In this document: positions 3,174 through 44,874 of the stretch, one piece after another
How the letters are laid out: each line of letters starts with the position of its first letter
Numbering within the stretch: position 1 is the first letter of the stretch
Origin: Escherichia coli
Lineage (GTDB): Bacteria > Pseudomonadota > Gammaproteobacteria > Enterobacterales > Enterobacteriaceae
Strand: one strand, 5' to 3'
Assembly: GCF_048403405.1 (NCBI RefSeq)
Contig: NZ_CP183129.1
DNA length: 64,000 bases
Notes under the pieces: model-generated
The model's input: the letters and a program-made list of their open reading frames with translations, nothing else
Told to the model about the DNA's origin: nothing
Database searches by the model: none
Position numbers and translations under genes: made by a program

Positions 3174-4826
3174 ATGTTTTGTGTGCAATGTGAACAAACT
3201 ATCCGTACTCCGGCAGGAAACGGCTGCTCATACGCGCAGGGGATGTGTGGTAAAACGGCGGAAACCTCTGACCTTCAGGATTTACTCATCGCGGCGCTGC
3301 AAGGGCTTTCGGCCTGGGCGGTAAAAGCGCGTGAATACGGCATCATCAACCACGATGTAGACAGCTTTGCGCCACGCGCATTTTTCTCAACCCTGACCAA
3401 CGTTAACTTCGATTCTCCGCGTATAGTCGGCTACGCTCGTGAAGCGATTGCCCTGCGCGAGGCGCTGAAAGCACAATGCCTGGCTGTAGATGCCAACGCC
3501 CGCGTCGATAACCCGATGGCTGACCTGCAACTGGTGAGCGATGATCTCGGCGAGCTGCAACGTCAGGCAGCAGAATTTACCCCTAACAAAGATAAAGCGG
3601 CGATTGGCGAAAACATTCTCGGCCTGCGCCTGCTGTGCCTGTATGGCCTGAAAGGTGCGGCGGCCTATATGGAACACGCACACGTTCTCGGTCAATACGA
3701 CAATGATATTTACGCCCAGTACCATAAAATCATGGCGTGGCTGGGGACCTGGCCTGCCGATATGAACGCGCTTCTTGAGTGTTCAATGGAAATCGGCCAG
3801 ATGAACTTCAAAGTGATGAGCATTCTGGATGCAGGCGAAACCAGTAAATACGGTCACCCGACGCCAACCCAGGTCAACGTCAAAGCGACGGCGGGTAAAT
3901 GCATTCTGATTTCCGGTCACGATCTCAAAGATCTCTACAACCTGCTGGAACAGACCGAAGGCACGGGCGTTAATGTCTACACCCACGGCGAAATGCTGCC
4001 TGCGCATGGCTACCCGGAGCTGCGTAAATTCAAGCATCTGGTCGGTAACTACGGCAGCGGCTGGCAGAATCAGCAAGTGGAGTTCGCTCGTTTCCCTGGC
4101 CCCATCGTGATGACCTCGAACTGCATCATCGACCCAACCGTAGGCGCTTATGACGATCGTATCTGGACCCGCAGCATCGTTGGCTGGCCGGGTGTGCGTC
4201 ATCTGGATGGCGAAGATTTCTCTGCGGTCATCGCCCAGGCGCAACAAATGGCGGGCTTCCCGTACAGCGAAATTCCGCACCTGATCACCGTGGGCTTTGG
4301 TCGTCAAACGCTGCTTGGCGCAGCCGATACGCTGATTGATCTGGTAAGCCGTGAAAAACTGCGTCATATCTTCCTGCTTGGCGGCTGTGACGGCGCACGC
4401 GGCGAGCGTCACTACTTCACCGATTTCGCCACCAGCGTGCCGGATGACTGTCTGATCCTGACTCTCGCCTGTGGTAAATATCGCTTTAACAAACTCGAGT
4501 TTGGCGATATCGAAGGTCTGCCGCGTCTGGTAGATGCTGGTCAGTGTAACGATGCTTACTCAGCGATTATTCTGGCGGTAACGCTGGCAGAGAAACTGGG
4601 CTGCGGAGTCAACGATCTGCCGCTGTCGCTGGTGCTCTCGTGGTTTGAACAGAAAGCGATTGTCATTCTGCTGACACTGCTTTCTCTGGGTGTGAAAAAT
4701 ATCGTCACCGGCCCGACTGCACCAGGTTTCCTGACACCAGATCTGCTGGCGGTGCTGAACGAGAAATTCGGCCTGCGTTCTATCACCACTGTTGAAGAAG
4801 ACATGAAGCAACTGTTGAGCGCGTAA
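3174..4826 (+). CDS. hcp: hybrid cluster protein / hydroxylamine reductase
   Basis: Translation [28 protein letters not shown]... with N-terminal Cys cluster; 550 aa from ATG 3174. Confidence 0.95.
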
Positions 4827-4837
4827 GGAGTTTGTCG

Positions 4838-5806
4838 ATGACGATGCCAACGAATCAATGCCCGTGGCGGATGCAGGTTCATCACATTACGCAAGAAACG
4901 CCGGATGTGTGGACGATTTCCCTGATTTGCCACGATTACTACCCATATCGCGCCGGGCAATATGCACTGGTCAGCGTGCGTAACTCAGCGGAAACGCTGC
5001 GTGCTTACACCATTTCCTCCACGCCAGGCGTGAGTGAATACATCACCCTGACTGTGCGGCGGATTGATGACGGTGTCGGCTCCCAGTGGCTGACGCGCGA
5101 TGTAAAACGCGGTGATTATCTCTGGCTTTCGGACGCGATGGGGGAATTTACCTGCGATGATAAAGCAGAAGATAAATTCCTGTTGCTGGCGGCAGGCTGC
5201 GGCGTCACGCCGATTATGTCGATGCGTCGCTGGCTGGCGAAGAACCGTCCGCAGGCCGATGTGCAGGTGATCTACAACGTGCGTACGCCGCAGGATGTGA
5301 TTTTCGCCGATGAGTGGCGTAACTATCCGGTAACGCTGGTGGCGGAAAATAACGTTACCGAAGGCTTTATCGCTGGTCGTCTCACTCGCGAACTGCTGGC
5401 AGGTGTCCCTGATTTAGCCTCACGTACCGTGATGACCTGTGGCCCTGCTCCATATATGGATTGGGTAGAGCAGGAAGTGAAAGCGCTCGGCGTGACGCGT
5501 TTCTTTAAAGAGAAATTCTTCACCCCAGTAGCGGAAGCGGCGACCAGCGGTCTGAAATTCACCAAACTGCAACCGGCACGAGAATTTTACGCCCCGGTTG
5601 GCACCACGCTACTGGAGGCGCTGGAAAGCAATAACGTTCCGGTTGTCGCCGCCTGCCGCGCAGGTGTTTGCGGCTGCTGTAAGACGAAAGTGGTTTCCGG
5701 TGAATATACGGTGAGCAGCACAATGACGCTGACCGACGCCGAAATCGCTGAAGGTTACGTACTGGCCTGCTCCTGCCATCCGCAGGGGGATTTGGTTCTC
5801 GCATAA
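4838..5806 (+). CDS. hcr: NADH oxidoreductase for Hcp (FAD/2Fe-2S)
   Basis: Translation MTMPTNQCPWRMQVHH... with C-terminal CRAGVCGCCK ferredoxin motif; AGGAG RBS 7 nt upstream of ATG 4838; track start 4832 is a TTG two codons upstream. Confidence 0.93.
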   Translation: MTMPTNQCPWRMQVHHITQETPDVWTISLICHDYYPYRAGQYALVSVRNSAETLRAYTISSTPGVSEYITLTVRRIDDGVGSQWLTRDVKRGDYLWLSDAMGEFTCDDKAEDKFLLLAAGCGVTPIMSMRRWLAKNRPQADVQVIYNVRTPQDVIFADEWRNYPVTLVAENNVTEGFIAGRLTRELLAGVPDLASRTVMTCGPAPYMDWVEQEVKALGVTRFFKEKFFTPVAEAATSGLKFTKLQPAREFYAPVGTTLLEALESNNVPVVAACRAGVCGCCKTKVVSGEYTVSSTMTLTDAEIAEGYVLACSCHPQGDLVLA

Positions 5807-29435: not shown

Positions 29436-31121
29436 GTGAATATAAACGTCGCCGAATTGTTAAATGGGAATTACATTCTGTTATTATTTGTGGTCCTCGC
29501 GCTTGGGCTATGTCTCGGGAAATTACGACTTGGTTCGATCCAACTGGGTAATTCCATTGGCGTTTTAGTCGTATCGCTGTTATTAGGCCAACAACATTTC
29601 AGCATTAACACCGACGCGCTTAATCTTGGCTTTATGCTGTTTATTTTCTGCGTCGGGGTCGAAGCCGGACCGAACTTTTTTTCCATTTTTTTTCGCGATG
29701 GGAAAAATTACCTAATGTTAGCACTGGTGATGGTTGGCAGTGCGCTGGCCATCGCCTTAGGGTTAGGTAAGCTGTTTGGCTGGGATATTGGCCTGACGGC
29801 CGGTATGTTAGCAGGCTCTATGACGTCAACACCGGTTCTGGTCGGTGCTGGCGATACACTGCGTCATTCCGGCATGGAAAGCAGGCAGCTCTCACTGGCA
29901 CTGGATAATCTGAGCCTCGGGTATGCCTTAACCTATTTAATCGGTCTGGTGAGTTTGATTGTTGGTGCGCGTTACTTGCCGAAATTGCAGCATCAGGACT
30001 TACAGACCAGCGCCCAGCAAATCGCCCGCGAACGTGGCCTGGACACAGATGCCAACCGTAAGGTTTATTTGCCGGTGATCCGCGCCTACCGCGTCGGCCC
30101 GGAGCTGGTAGCCTGGACCGACGGCAAAAATCTGCGTGAACTGGGTATTTATCGACAAACCGGCTGCTACATTGAACGTATTCGGCGTAACGGGATTCTG
30201 GCAAATCCAGACGGTGATGCCGTGCTACAAATGGGCGATGAAATAGCGTTGGTAGGCTACCCCGACGCCCACGCCCGACTCGATCCCAGTTTCCGTAATG
30301 GCAAAGAAGTTTTCGATCGTGACCTTCTCGACATGCGTATCGTCACTGAAGAAGTGGTCGTTAAAAACCATAACGCTGTTGGCAAACGCCTGGCACAACT
30401 GAAGTTGACCGATCACGGTTGCTTCCTTAACCGCGTCATACGTAGCCAGATTGAGATGCCGATTGATGACAACGTCGTGCTTAACAAAGGTGACGTTTTA
30501 CAAGTCAGCGGCGATGCCCGCCGCGTAAAAACCATCGCCGATCGCATCGGCTTTATCTCGATTCACAGCCAGGTCACTGACTTGCTGGCATTCTGCGCCT
30601 TCTTTGTTATTGGGCTGATGATCGGGATGATCACCTTCCAGTTCAGCACATTCAGTTTCGGCATGGGGAACGCTGCCGGGTTGTTATTCGCCGGAATTAT
30701 GCTGGGCTTTATGCGTGCTAACCACCCGACCTTCGGTTACATTCCGCAGGGTGCATTAAGCATGGTGAAGGAGTTCGGCTTGATGGTGTTTATGGCAGGC
30801 GTTGGTCTGAGCGCTGGTAGCGGTATTAATAACGGCCTGGGCGCGATTGGCGGTCAGATGTTGATTGCCGGATTGATTGTCAGTCTGGTGCCAGTGGTTA
30901 TCTGCTTCTTGTTCGGTGCTTATGTATTGCGAATGAACCGCGCACTGTTGTTCGGCGCAATGATGGGCGCACGCACCTGCGCGCCGGCAATGGAGATCAT
31001 CAGTGATACAGCTCGCAGTAACATCCCGGCGCTGGGCTATGCGGGCACCTACGCAATCGCCAACGTCCTGCTGACGCTGGCAGGGACAATCATCGTCATG
31101 GTATGGCCAGGATTAGGATAA
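29436..31121 (+). CDS. ybjL: putative transport protein YbjL (two transporter domains flanking TrkA-C-like domains)
   Basis: 561-aa translation [24 protein letters not shown]... Confidence 0.93.
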
Positions 31122-31164
31122 AACTGAAGTTGCCCTGAAAATGAAATTTTTTTGCACAACCGCA

Positions 31165-31192
31165 GAACTTTTCCGCAGGGCATCAGTCTTAA
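31165..31192 (+). promoter_or_regulatory. sigma-E-type promoter of rybB
   Basis: -35 GAACTT (31165-31170), 16-nt spacer, -10-like gtctta, about 6 nt before the RybB 5' end. Confidence 0.55.
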
Positions 31193-31197
31193 TTAGT

Positions 31198-31276
31198 GCC
31201 ACTGCTTTTCTTTGATGTCCCCATTTTGTGGAGCCCATCAACCCCGCCATTTCGGTTCAAGGTTGGTGGGTTTTTT
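31198..31276 (+). ncRNA. rybB: RybB small RNA (sigma-E-dependent, Hfq-binding)
   Basis: 79-nt sequence gccactgcttttctttgatgtccccattttgtggagcccatcaaccccgccatttcggttcaaggttggtgggtttttt matches RybB as I recall it, with intrinsic terminator (ccaacc/ggttgg + U6); lies between ybjL and rcdA as in E. coli. Confidence 0.9.
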
Positions 31277-31295
31277 GTTATCTAAAATTTATCTA

Positions 31296-31832
31296 CTACC
31301 CTGCAACCCTCTCAACCATCCTCAAAATCTCCTCGCGCGATAGCGGCTTACGGTCGGTGACAAAATGCAGCGTCATCCCCTCAATAAACGCATCAAGCGC
31401 GCGGGCGGTTCCGGGTTCAAACCATTGTTCGAGCGTTTGCTGACTGCGCTGCATCCAGTTTTGCATTACCGTTTTTAATAGCGGTTTTCGGCTAGCCAGC
31501 GCGTAGAGCTGATACATCAGCTCCATATTATCCGGCGTTGCAACCTGTGAGCTGTAGATCATATCGGTGATAGCCTGGCATGCGCCTTGAGCATCACTAA
31601 CATCGCTAAAAAATGCCTGATATTGCCGGGACATGATCTCAGTAAAACTGCTGAACGCCTCCAGCAACAACTCATCAATTCCTGAAAAATAGTAGGTCAT
31701 CGATCCCAACGGTACCCCGGCAAGGGTAGCAATTTTGCGGTGCGTAACAGCATGTATTCCATAAAGTTTCACCGCCTCCAGCGTGGCCTGGATAATTTTT
31801 TCTCGCCGTTGCGGATCGTTAGCGCGACGCAT
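31296..31832 (-). CDS. rcdA: TetR-family transcriptional regulator RcdA
   Basis: From ATG 31832 ([22 protein letters not shown]...), 178 aa, N-terminal TetR HTH. Confidence 0.92.
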
Positions 31833-31852
31833 GTCATTTCCTCTCTCTGCAA

Positions 31853-31872
31853 TTGTGTACAAATGTACACAA
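31853..31872. promoter_or_regulatory. 20-bp perfect palindrome in the rcdA-ybjJ divergent promoter region; candidate TetR-type (RcdA) operator
   Basis: ttgtgtaca-aa-tgtacacaa: 9-bp arms, perfect dyad symmetry, 20 nt upstream of the rcdA start. Confidence 0.45.
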
Positions 31873-39401: not shown

Positions 39402-40513
39402 TTGCGTGGGCTAACTTTAAGTAATTCCCCACTGGACTCGTCGGTGAGAACGTATAAATAACCGTCGGGTCCAGTGCGAACATCACGAATTCGCTGCCCT
39501 CTGTCCGTTAAAATACGGCCATCTTCTGTCACTTTGTCGCCGTTGACGCTCATCACAATGACATCTTTATCTTTCAGCGCGCCAATAAATAATTTTTGCT
39601 GCCACTGGGGGAATTTATCGCTGTTATAGAAGGCCATGCCGCTCACGGCGGGCGAATCTTTCCAGTAAAAAACAGGTTGCTCGGTCCCGGCGACGATCTC
39701 CCCTTTCGCTTCCGGTATCTTAAAGCCTGAATAGTTGATTCCCCAGGTTGCCAGCGGCCAGCCGTAGTTTTTGCCTTTTTGCGGGATATTAATTTCATCG
39801 CCACCGCGCGGGCCATGTTCATTCAGCCATAGTGCATTACTCCACGGATTCATCGCCATTCCTTGCGGATTACGAATGCCATAAGACCAGATCTCGGCGC
39901 GCGCACCGGATTCCTTTATAAAAGGATTATCATCCGGGATTTCGCCCTGGTCGGTCAGACGCACCAGTTTGCCCTGTAATTTATTCAGATCCTGCGCCGT
40001 CGAGCGCTGATTGTTTTCGCCCAGAGCAATAAAAAGATAACCTTTACCGTCGAATACCAGCCGCCCGCCAAAATGGTTGCCGGTAGACAGTTTTGGCATC
40101 TGGCGAAAGACGGTGCGGAAGTCGGTCACCTTTGAGAGATCATCACTTATGCGGCCATAACCCACAGCAGTTCCGGCTTTGCCATCATCGCCAACTTCGG
40201 AATAACTTAACCAGATGCGGCGAGACTGAGCAAAATCAGGCGCTAAAACCACATCCAGCAGGCCACCCTGCCCGTGCGCCCAAACTTCCGGCACTCCGGA
40301 AAGCGGCGCAGATAATCCTTTTCCTGCTTGCCAGTGACGCAACTCGCCGCCGCGCAGAGTGATTAACATACCGTGATTGTCGGGTAAAAAGGCCAGCGCC
40401 CAGGGATGGTCGAGTTTGTCCTGCAGTACTTCGACATTTACCGTTGCAGGAGCCGCCCAGAGAGCGGAAGAAAGACAAATAAGGGGCACAAGGAAAAAGG
40501 ATTGTCGATGCAT
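39398..40513 (-). CDS. yliI: soluble aldose sugar dehydrogenase YliI (PQQ-dependent, beta-propeller)
   Basis: 371-aa translation [27 protein letters not shown]... with signal peptide. Confidence 0.93.
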
Positions 40514-42545: not shown

Positions 42546-42729
42546 TTAATCTTAAGGCAGATCTAACAAGGATATTGTTCTTCGATCTGCCTCTGCTACC
42601 CTTCCCGATGTCCTACCCTTACGCACAAAATCCCCTGACGCATAAATCGAGAAAAATGAATCGTACTCGAGGCAACTCTCACTTTTTCACACCAAATTAA
42701 AGTTTTGATCGCAATTACTTGAAATAAGC

Positions 42730-42755
42730 GTAATGGTTACTATAGTAAACATTAC
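42730..42755. promoter_or_regulatory. 26-bp near-perfect palindrome; candidate operator for the downstream toxin-antitoxin operon
   Basis: gtaatggttactatagtaaacattac (single mismatch from perfect dyad symmetry) ending 15 nt before the toxin start codon. Confidence 0.5.
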
Positions 42756-42770
42756 CACAAGGATGGATGT

Positions 42771-43157
42771 ATGGGTGTGTATAAGGCAAGACGATTCAGC
42801 CAAAGCACGAAAAAACTTGGTATTCACGATAAAGTTCTCATGGCTGCCGCTGAAGAAGTGATGCAGGGCATATGGGAGGCTGATTTAGGTAGCGGTGTCA
42901 TCAAAAAACGTTTACCCCTCCAACAAGGAAAGAGTGGTGGAGCCAGAACAATTATCTTTTTTAAATCAGCAAATCATGTGTTTTTTTATGATGGTTGGTC
43001 CAAGAGTGGTCTAAGCAGTAAAGGAACCAAAGAAATCGAAGATGATGAACTGGCGGCCTACAAAAAAATGGCAAATGCATTTCTGGCCTTTAGCAATAAG
43101 CAAATAGAGGATTTGATCGAAACTGGCTTTTTGATTGAGGTGAAAAATGAGCGATAA
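42771..43157 (+). CDS. putative type II toxin, RelE/ParE superfamily (HigB-like; toxin-first operon)
   Basis: 128-aa basic protein MGVYKARRFSQSTKKLGIHDKVL...GKSGGARTIIFF...; AAGGA RBS; overlaps downstream HTH gene by 11 nt. Confidence 0.65.
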   Translation: MGVYKARRFSQSTKKLGIHDKVLMAAAEEVMQGIWEADLGSGVIKKRLPLQQGKSGGARTIIFFKSANHVFFYDGWSKSGLSSKGTKEIEDDELAAYKKMANAFLAFSNKQIEDLIETGFLIEVKNER

Positions 43158-43476
43158 ATTACAAATGATGCTGGAAGATGCAAAGGAACTGAATGCACTG
43201 GGCCTGATGTCTGATAGTGAAGTTGATGCCATTGCCGTCATGGTCAAAGCTCGTGAAGTCAGCGCCCGTATAGCCAAAGTCAAATCAATGACGGGTGAAG
43301 AGATCAAAGCCATCCGCACCCGATACGGCATGTCACAATCCGTGCTGGCACATACAATGGGAATGTCAAAAGAAAGTGTCTCGAAATGGGAACGTAATGA
43401 AATAAAACCGAGCGGCCCGGCATTACGTATTTTGAATACATTGGCAATAAAAGGGCCGGAAGTTTTTGCAAAGTAA
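43147..43476 (+). CDS. putative antitoxin with C-terminal XRE-family HTH (HigA-like)
   Basis: 109-aa protein; C-terminal GMSQSVLAHTMGMSKESVSKWERNEIKPSGPALRILNTL is a typical Cro/C1-type HTH; translationally coupled to the upstream toxin-like gene. Confidence 0.65.
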   Translation: MSDKLQMMLEDAKELNALGLMSDSEVDAIAVMVKAREVSARIAKVKSMTGEEIKAIRTRYGMSQSVLAHTMGMSKESVSKWERNEIKPSGPALRILNTLAIKGPEVFAK

Positions 43477-43504
43477 AATGTTTGCAAATGATTTACCACA
43501 TTCA

Positions 43505-43532
43505 TTAGTACCCCTTGATTAAGGGGTACTAA
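43505..43532. terminator. strong hairpin between the antitoxin gene and convergent dgcI
   Basis: Perfect 12-bp stem ttagtacccctt-gatt-aaggggtactaa. Confidence 0.5.
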
Positions 43533-43545
43533 CACTATTCTAATT

Positions 43546-44874
43546 CTACTGCCAGCTAATCTGCGCCCTGCCGTTTTTCTTACTCTTATACAGCCGCTCA
43601 TCCGCCAGCATTTTCAAGCGTTCGACGGTAGTACATTCATTTGAATGCGCTACACCGATACTGGTGCTTAAATTAATGCTTCCCACCTGGAAATGAACGA
43701 TTTCTTTTAGAATCGATAGCAACTCTTCCAGCGTTCCACCCGTATAAATCACCGCAAATTCGTCACCGCCGAAGCGGTAGACTTTACCTTTATCTACCGG
43801 GATCTGTGATTTAAGGATTTTCACCACTTTCATCAACACTTCATCGCCCAGCAAATGACCGAAGGTGTCGTTGATGTTTTTGAATTTATCGACGTCAAAC
43901 AGGCACAAATAACCGCCTTTTTCCGGTAGCGCTTTTAAATCTTCGTCAAAGGATTTTCTGCCCATCGCTTTGGTCAGGTCGTCCAGGAACGCCGAGTTAT
44001 ACAGACTGTAGAGTTTTTTGACATCGGCAGCCGAAAAGAAAAGCCCGCCATCCAGTACGCGTTCAAAATGGTTATTAATAATGGCTTCTTTCTCCACAAT
44101 ACCACGATTAATCACTCTGCGTACCAGATAGAGGCAACTGACACCCGATATCACTGCCACCAATGCGGCAAAGAAAATAATCAATGTACAGACCCGCAAA
44201 TAAACATCTTTTTTATACGCAAATACGTACAATCCGGTCGGCAAATAGGCGAAGTGCTCCATCGCTTCCGAAACGGTGAAGATGGCGTTTTTAGCATTAT
44301 ATTCATCACCGGTCACCGGTTTACCGTTCTTAAACAGAGAGAACATCAGGTTCTCGCTATCCATCGCCAGCGATTTTGACAGTAAAGAAAAACGCTCCAG
44401 ACCAAGCAAAAATATCAGACTACGATTATGAGTTACCGGATAGAGGTAATAGACGAAGGTTTTACCGTCAAAAGAGATAAACCCTGTATTTTTGACATGT
44501 CGATACTTCACAATCTGCATAATATCTGCACAATAATTTTTCTCGAACTCCTTTACCTGAATACATTCGTCACTGGAAATCAGATAAGGACCGACATCGT
44601 ACAAATAAGAGGGTGAAAGCGAGTCGGCGTAAGCTGTGCGTAAGCCAACCAACAGCTGTTCCTCCGTGGGGTTTAGCGTGTTGATAAGATCAATTGCCAC
44701 GCTACGCCGATATTCAGCAATATTTGCCACCGCAAAAGCAGTATCAATAACGGACTGTTTCAGGCCATACACCCGTTCCTTTACCATTTGAGTGTAGATC
44801 CCGCAGGCAACTGCTGAAATCATGATAAAAATCAGCAGACTGACTGTAAGTACGAACTTATTGATTCTGGACAT
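43546..44874 (-). CDS. dgcI: diguanylate cyclase DgcI (YliF)
   Basis: 442-aa translation [23 protein letters not shown]... with GGDEF motif (RFGGDEFAV). Confidence 0.93.

Follow-up and report, generated by a model that had tools for sequence, protein, structure and literature searches.

Within the sigma-E envelope-stress response, RybB constitutes a central arm. Its control by sigma-E, its seed and its outer-membrane protein (OMP) targets, which include OmpA and OmpC, have been described (PMC6694218; PMC1804206), and its function was worked out in Salmonella (PMC1804206). Conservation of the rybB promoter has been reported, and the published sigma-E consensus comprises a -35 element GGAACTTTT and a -10 element GTCAAA (PMC1804206). 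Sigma-E-dependent transcription of rybB goes back to work on E. coli K-12, as cited in PMC6694218. The rybB promoter is among the strongest of the sigma-E regulon (PMC12249550) and was a member of the 60-promoter library of tested sigma-E promoters used for modelling UP elements (PMC3326320), and the seed motif CRCUGCUUUU is common to RybB, MicV and VrrA (PMC6694218). The gene has also been described as an integration site: it constitutes prophage hotspot #29, which harbours only Felsduovirus prophages, often with defence systems (PMC10121019), and the Fels-2-like island Kpn38RybB sits precisely in Klebsiella rybB (PMC4048246).

Here we analyse a copy of this locus in a stretch of 64 kb from Escherichia coli (contig NZ_CP183129.1), referred to below as the window. 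The data indicate, with a probability that we put at roughly 0.97, that positions 31198-31276 of the forward strand are the chromosomal E. coli rybB gene, with its sigma-E promoter and terminator, and encode the putative Hfq-dependent small RNA RybB. This reading is based on sequence identity, a conserved promoter architecture, a covarying terminator, synteny and the absence of an interrupting prophage, and no sequence evidence contrary to it was found in the window. By analogy with the described systems, the source strain would be expected to transcribe the gene under sigma-E control, and the RNA to bind Hfq and repress its targets. The element is already known and the window copy is an ordinary one; existing knowledge of RybB is unchanged.

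Identification and occurrence of rybB

A cmscan search of the window with all 4227 Rfam families returned a single gathering-level match, to the RybB family RF00110, at 31201-31279 on the forward strand (104.1 bits against a gathering score of 40; E 2.5e-20). The match is far above chance level and covers the full length of the model (positions 1-79 of 79), with no truncation. The Rfam model begins 3 nt inside the K-12 transcript and extends 3 nt beyond its end. Following the K-12 annotation, the 79-nt gene was delimited at 31198-31276 (+), with G31198 as +1 opening the RNA (GCCACUGC / GCCACUGCUUUUCUUUGAUGUCCCC) and T31276, the last T of six, as its 3' end. Alignment with the curated K-12 ncRNA gene (b4417; NC_000913.3 887979-888057, 79 nt) yielded 78 matches over 79 positions and one mismatch. 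The first-pass annotation had proposed, from the letters of the DNA, that a 79-nt RybB was present here as a known element, and had suggested the Rfam RybB model as a check; both the RF00110 hit and the identity with the curated K-12 gene bear this out. The interval in which it placed RybB and its promoter, 31165-31276, opens with the first base of the -35 hexamer and closes with the final U of the RNA.

The rybB locus is almost universal in E. coli, being matched in 5418-5422 of 5426 complete genomes. In the E. coli genome collection, 7 to 11 matches to this region fall on plasmid-labelled records, which may represent pieces of chromosome carried by large plasmids or else contigs with a wrong label; one such match (H80), on a record of 150 kb, spans only the rcdA end.

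Also confirmed was the remark that ORF-based annotation misses the gene: the RefSeq/PGAP records inspected carry no feature beneath the RybB match, and the curated K-12 record alone has an ncRNA there. Automatic RefSeq annotation thereby omits RybB from most E. coli genomes, a matter of annotation completeness only. The recovery of rybB with correct ends and promoter is a sign that the scan works properly.

Genomic context

Upstream of rybB and in the same direction lies ybjL (29436-31121, +), a 561-aa ORF of the aspartate:alanine antiporter family (WP_001024876.1). Downstream, and convergent with rybB, is rcdA (ybjK), coding for a TetR-type regulator (31296-31832, -), whose 537 nt lie within the ORF 31296-31862. 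The coordinates of both neighbours were transferred from a RefSeq record with 100% identity to the window across 31100-31330. The placement of rybB between ybjL and rcdA, as anticipated from the sequence, thus stands, with the gene order of K-12; rybB and ybjL are co-stranded as in K-12, and the ybjL-rybB-rcdA synteny is as described for Salmonella (PMC1804206).

On the reverse strand, a weak sigma-70-like site (TTGAGA-18-TAAATT, 9 of 12 positions) was detected at 31286-31315, in the 3' end of rcdA and directed antisense across rybB. Two such sites occur in the region against 1.2 expected, which is chance level.

The sigma-E-type promoter

The sequence preceding the RNA contains a -35 element, aGAACTTTT, at 31164-31172 (+), with its GAACTT core at 31165-31170, and a -10 element, GTCTTA, at 31186-31191 (+), within which TCTTA occupies 31187-31191. 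The spacer between GAACTT and TCTTA is 16 nt long (31171-31186), and a 6-nt discriminator, ATTAGT (31192-31197), leads to the +1 at G31198. The -35 element agrees with the consensus GGAACTTTT at 8 of 9 positions and the -10 element with GTCAAA at 4 of 6. In the alignment with K-12, the promoter is identical from -35 to +1, and the -35 element is the same in the window, K-12, the ST131 genome and AR_0017.

To assess conservation beyond E. coli, one genome per bacterial or archaeal species was scanned for a 21-nt stretch inside the RNA, the promoter itself not being used in the search. The scan yielded at least 120 loci, distributed among Escherichia, Citrobacter, Enterobacter, Kluyvera, Serratia, Yersinia, Proteus, Providencia, Xenorhabdus and other genera. 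Among the matches listed, 113 loci had enough flanking sequence and, together with the window, provided a set of 114 distinct Enterobacterales sequences. In this set, GAACTT is present at -33 to -28 in 112 of 114 sequences, and G-12, T-11, C-10, A-7, T-1 and G+1 are each found in all 114, in a context where the 16-nt promoter spacer carries only ~0-0.8 bits per position. The invariant bases are the consensus-defining ones, and the -10 positions at which the window departs from the consensus are exactly those that vary between species.

Upstream of the -35 element, an A3-T7 tract (AAATTTTTTT) resembling an UP element was identified at 31144-31153 (+), that is, at -54 to -45. Among the same 114 sequences (matches listed plus window), T is conserved at -48 to -45 in 100-105 cases, and the adjacent positions -44 to -36 carry ~0-0.35 bits. 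The tract may act as an UP element, its conservation being as expected of one.

Occurrence of the promoter motif as such was not used as evidence, because its frequency is at chance: two instances of GAACTT-N15-17-TCNNA were counted in the 64-kb window against 1.32 expected from shuffles. The weight lies instead on the fixed distance to +1 and on conservation. The second instance (GAACTTCTGGTGTGTCGTCCCGTTCTGA; 16894-16921, -) is antisense inside artI, at a position with no RNA family match. A generic promoter scan found no sigma-70-like promoter on the forward strand upstream of the RNA. The same scan was silent on the rybB promoter, but it models sigma-70 hexamers only and its silence is hence not counter-evidence. 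Taken together, the agreement with the consensus, the 16-nt spacing, the 6-nt discriminator and the retention of key bases in 112-114 of 114 sequences support the interpretation of 31164-31191 as a sigma-E-type promoter, as the first-pass annotation had put forward.

The 5' region and the ybjL transcript

The 5' end of RybB reads GCCACUGCUUUU and bears the CRCUGCUUUU motif. The first 25 nt of the RNA (31198-31222, +), which contain the target-pairing seed CACUGCUUUU at 31200-31209, are identical in K-12 and in all 62 distinct Enterobacterales sequences aligned (the window and 61 others, among the matches listed); nt 5-25 are fixed by the search pattern, and only the invariance of nt 1-4 is an independent observation. 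Folding assigns nt 6-16 a probability of 0.95 of being unpaired, and the seed is accordingly predicted to be accessible. The minimum free energy (MFE) fold also contains a 4-bp 5' helix, pairing nt 2-5 with nt 31-34, that would cover the seed in part. This helix was rejected as a conserved structure: it shows zero covariation, and 19 of 62 sequences have a disrupted A4-U34 pair.

The proximity of ybjL raises the question of whether the hairpin described below is simply the terminator of that gene, within its 3' UTR, and the RNA a by-product of ybjL transcription as opposed to the product of an independent gene. On the same strand, the ybjL stop codon (31121) precedes the start of rybB by 76 nt, and a generic scan found no other terminator-like site between 31122 and 31197. 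However, the promoter keeps a constant spacing to the 5' end of the RNA and is retained in 112-114 of 114 sequences while the intergenic bases around it vary freely, an invariant stretch of 25 nt at the 5' end would be needless for a mere 3' UTR, the RNA is curated in K-12 as a separate ncRNA, and its sigma-E-dependent transcription has been published (PMC1804206; PMC6694218). We therefore regard a by-product of ybjL as very unlikely, and an independent rybB gene as the appropriate reading. Given the absence of a terminator-like site between the ybjL stop codon and rybB, ybjL transcripts probably end at the RybB hairpin too. A terminator shared by both genes is likely; the two roles are compatible, and the former does not replace the small RNA gene.

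Terminator structure and coding potential

The Rfam consensus structure, the MFE fold and covariation all outline a Rho-independent terminator at 31232-31276 (+). Its stem comprises 12 bp, with 31232-31243 paired to 31261-31272, and encloses a 17-nt loop containing a small inner helix; a run of six U follows at 31271-31276. The MFE of the window RybB is -24.6 kcal/mol. Covariation was analysed in the alignment of 62 distinct sequences (the window and 61 from the species scan, among the matches listed), in which 97.2% of the stem cells are paired. Compensatory changes on both sides, such as A-U to G-C or C-G to U-A, were observed at 6 of 12 stem pairs, a covariation matched by 0 of 500 shuffles, and sliding the 3' partners by 1-3 columns lowered pairing from 95% to 21-46%. 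The intrinsic terminator noted on first inspection is thus substantiated. A generic terminator scan missed this hairpin, but it allows loops of 3-8 nt only, and this omission is not counter-evidence.

In one E. coli genome, AR_0017 (NZ_CP024886.1), a 9-nt deletion (GAGCCCATC; ~1536-1537 of locus L003) removes the greater part of the 5' arm from the terminator stem of RybB, and the predicted fold, at -14.1 versus -25.2 kcal/mol, lacks the terminator hairpin. The AR_0017 rybB is either a defective allele or an assembly error.

The alignment also bears on whether the region might encode a small protein. Three ORFs overlap it, at 31212-31343 (+, 43 aa), 31228-31443 (+, 71 aa) and 31113-31250 (-, 45 aa), and would be compatible with such a product. 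Across species, however, the length of RybB varies between 76 and 83 nt by indels of sizes not divisible by three, and substitutions in the stem are compensatory pair changes that do not resemble those of codons. On these two grounds, the overlapping ORFs were excluded as coding. Moreover, the forward-strand ORFs continue into the antisense strand of rcdA, and none of the RefSeq records inspected has an ORF annotated here. The probability of a small protein is, in our estimation, negligible.

The G31266 allele

The sole difference from K-12 within RybB lies at 31266 (+), where the window has G and K-12 has A. In the terminator stem this yields a U31238-G31266 wobble in place of the K-12 U-A pair, with an unchanged structure and a cost of ~0.6 kcal/mol (MFE -24.6 in the window versus -25.2 kcal/mol in K-12). 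It could be argued that the window copy is a decaying or weakened allele, in which the A-to-G change impairs termination or RNA stability. In favour of this idea, G31266 is the only K-12 difference inside the RNA and replaces a Watson-Crick pair by a wobble, and none of the other 61 distinct species sequences aligned (among the matches listed) has a G at this position. Nonetheless, U-G is still a standard pair, the fold is the same after a loss of just 0.6 kcal/mol, and 3 of the 62 aligned sequences have U-G at the 31238/31266 pair. The same G is also the allele of Salmonella Typhimurium rybB, from the organism in which RybB was characterised, and over 31165-31290 the window is matched at 99% identity or more by 888 E. 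coli records. A weakened allele hence appears extremely improbable, and the simpler reading of G31266 is a neutral polymorphism, representing a recurrent wobble.

An origin of G31266 as the scar of an exchange with a phage attP was also considered. One prophage, 1532WA, does carry GTGGG on its own side, but this origin was discarded, the same G being native in Salmonella rybB.

Proposed mode of action

The mechanism established for RybB in K-12 and Salmonella can be carried over to the window copy by analogy. Under this scheme, misfolded outer-membrane proteins would lead to degradation of the anti-sigma factor RseA and thereby free sigma-E. The sigma-E-RNA polymerase would then recognise aGAACTTTT and GTCTTA and initiate at G31198, and transcription would stop at the 12-bp hairpin and U-run. 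With Hfq, the single-stranded 5' seed CACUGCUUUU would pair with a large number of omp mRNAs, ompC and ompA among them, blocking their translation and hastening their decay, which would ease envelope stress and close a negative feedback loop on sigma-E.

A prophage attachment site at the 3' end of rybB

The 3' end of rybB coincides with an attachment site for Fels-2/P2-like (Felsduovirus) prophages. The phage-type core (ATGGGTTTTTTGTTGCCTGAAATTTA) spans 26 nt, formed by the last 11 nt of rybB and 15 nt downstream, and its attB equivalent in the window, at 31266-31291 (+), is unoccupied and reads GTGGGTTTTTTGTTATCTAAAATTTA. In the ST131 genome (NZ_CP015085.1), rybB is followed not by rcdA but by an ogr/Delta-like gene and a complete P2-family prophage of ~34.6 kb. 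This prophage runs from integrase to ogr and lies between the two copies of an exact 26-nt direct repeat, at positions 4742-4767 and 39432-39457 of the corresponding locus (L125). A 131-nt query spanning the junction was found contiguous, as in the window, in 4225 of 5422 E. coli genomes; ~1,200 of the 5,422 (~22%) break at 31291/31292, where the window is uninterrupted, and a phage-rcdA junction of the same type as that of ST131 was detected in 899 genomes. Among phages, a search of a phage collection with the RybB 3' half returned five records, the 26-nt core being too short for BLAST at that database size, and a Klebsiella phage record ends with the entire rybB and an annotated attR. The rybB prophage hotspot is already published; the empty site in the window denotes a strain without the Fels-2/P2-like prophage, and its frequent defence cargo, found at this position in about one fifth of E. 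coli genomes.

Four of the 26 positions (31266, 31280, 31281 and 31284) distinguish the core-equivalent of the window from the phage-type core. The possibility that this variant core protects from integration was rejected, as occupied junctions carry both the window's and K-12-type sequences: the occupied attR junctions of WCHEC035148 and of a DH5alpha-labelled record present the window's GTTATCTAAAATTTA, and that of SC516 presents the K-12-type GTTATCTAAAACTTA. These occupied junctions retain a bacterial-type right half, and the crossover must therefore lie to the left of 31280, in the terminator arm or the U-tail. The integrated phage resupplies this part of rybB, as at tRNA attachment sites.

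A conserved box following the U-run

Immediately after the U-run, a conserved box of ~13 nt with consensus RTTGCCTGAAATT was observed at 31277-31289 (+), based on the 22 nt that follow the U-run in loci L005-L124. The majority base of the box reaches 64-100%, versus ~35-70% in the promoter spacer of the same Enterobacterales sequences (among the matches listed), which serves as the neutral reference. The window has a derived form of the box with three substitutions (GTTATCTAAAATT), and shares with K-12 the derived GTTATCTAAAAT/CT form after the U-run. No function was found for this post-U-run box. It could tentatively be linked to RybB 3'-end formation or read-through antisense to rcdA, or else to recognition by the integrase, but we consider a functional role rather unlikely; if true, E. 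coli lineages would differ in this box. Homogenisation of the box by phage integration and excision was not supported, attR keeping the bacterial-type right half.

Variable regions elsewhere in the window

Comparison with E. coli O103:H2 12009 revealed 100% identity over 231 nt at rybB and 96-99% elsewhere, with two insertions of the window absent from that genome. The first, a 2.5-kb stretch at 12457-15004 between ybjP and ybjQ, contains an ORF (12606-14408, -) for a 600-aa pentapeptide-repeat protein; 1122 of 5424 E. coli genomes have it in full length. The second, a 1-kb stretch at 42551-43546 between rimO and dgcI, harbours a type II toxin-antitoxin pair encoded by the ORFs 42771-43157 (+) and 43147-43476 (+), comprising a RelE-family toxin (Pfam PF06296, E 6.9e-33) and an HTH antitoxin; this stretch was found in 1128 of 5425 genomes. 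The nearly equal counts suggest that the pentapeptide gene and the toxin-antitoxin stretch mark the same lineage.

Comparison with known systems

Other small RNAs of the envelope-stress response, namely MicA and MicL in E. coli and MicV/VrrA in Vibrio, have sigma-E-type promoters and repression of envelope proteins in common with RybB (PMC6694218; PMC4102768). They are, however, different RNAs encoded at different loci, and none of them produced a gathering-level Rfam match in the 64-kb window.

Among the closest described systems is RybB of K-12, which equals the window copy in its 79-nt length, its promoter from -35 to +1, its 5' seed and body, its terminator architecture and its neighbours. 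The two differ in the A of K-12 against G31266 and, downstream, in a C of K-12 against the T of the window at 31287.

RybB of Salmonella enterica, located between STM0869 and STM0870, belongs to the same family and follows the same sigma-E promoter logic and OMP repression (PMC1804206). Comparison of the 3' half of the gene showed that the Salmonella terminator 3' arm, GGUUGGUGGG, is that of the window, including the G allele, whereas the sequence following the U-run is GTTGCCCAACGC in Salmonella and GTTATCTAAAAT in the window. In a Salmonella Typhimurium genomic island region (AB571791.1, locus L132, 336-440), IS26 abuts the rybB sequence TTGTGGAGCCC, truncating the gene with loss of its promoter and seed.

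With regard to phage integration, the nearest parallel is provided by tRNA and tmRNA attachment sites, in which the att core likewise extends over the 3' end of a gene for a small RNA, an end that the copy carried by the phage restores after integration. Unlike occupied sites of this type, the rybB site of the window is empty, and its core differs at 4 of 26 positions.
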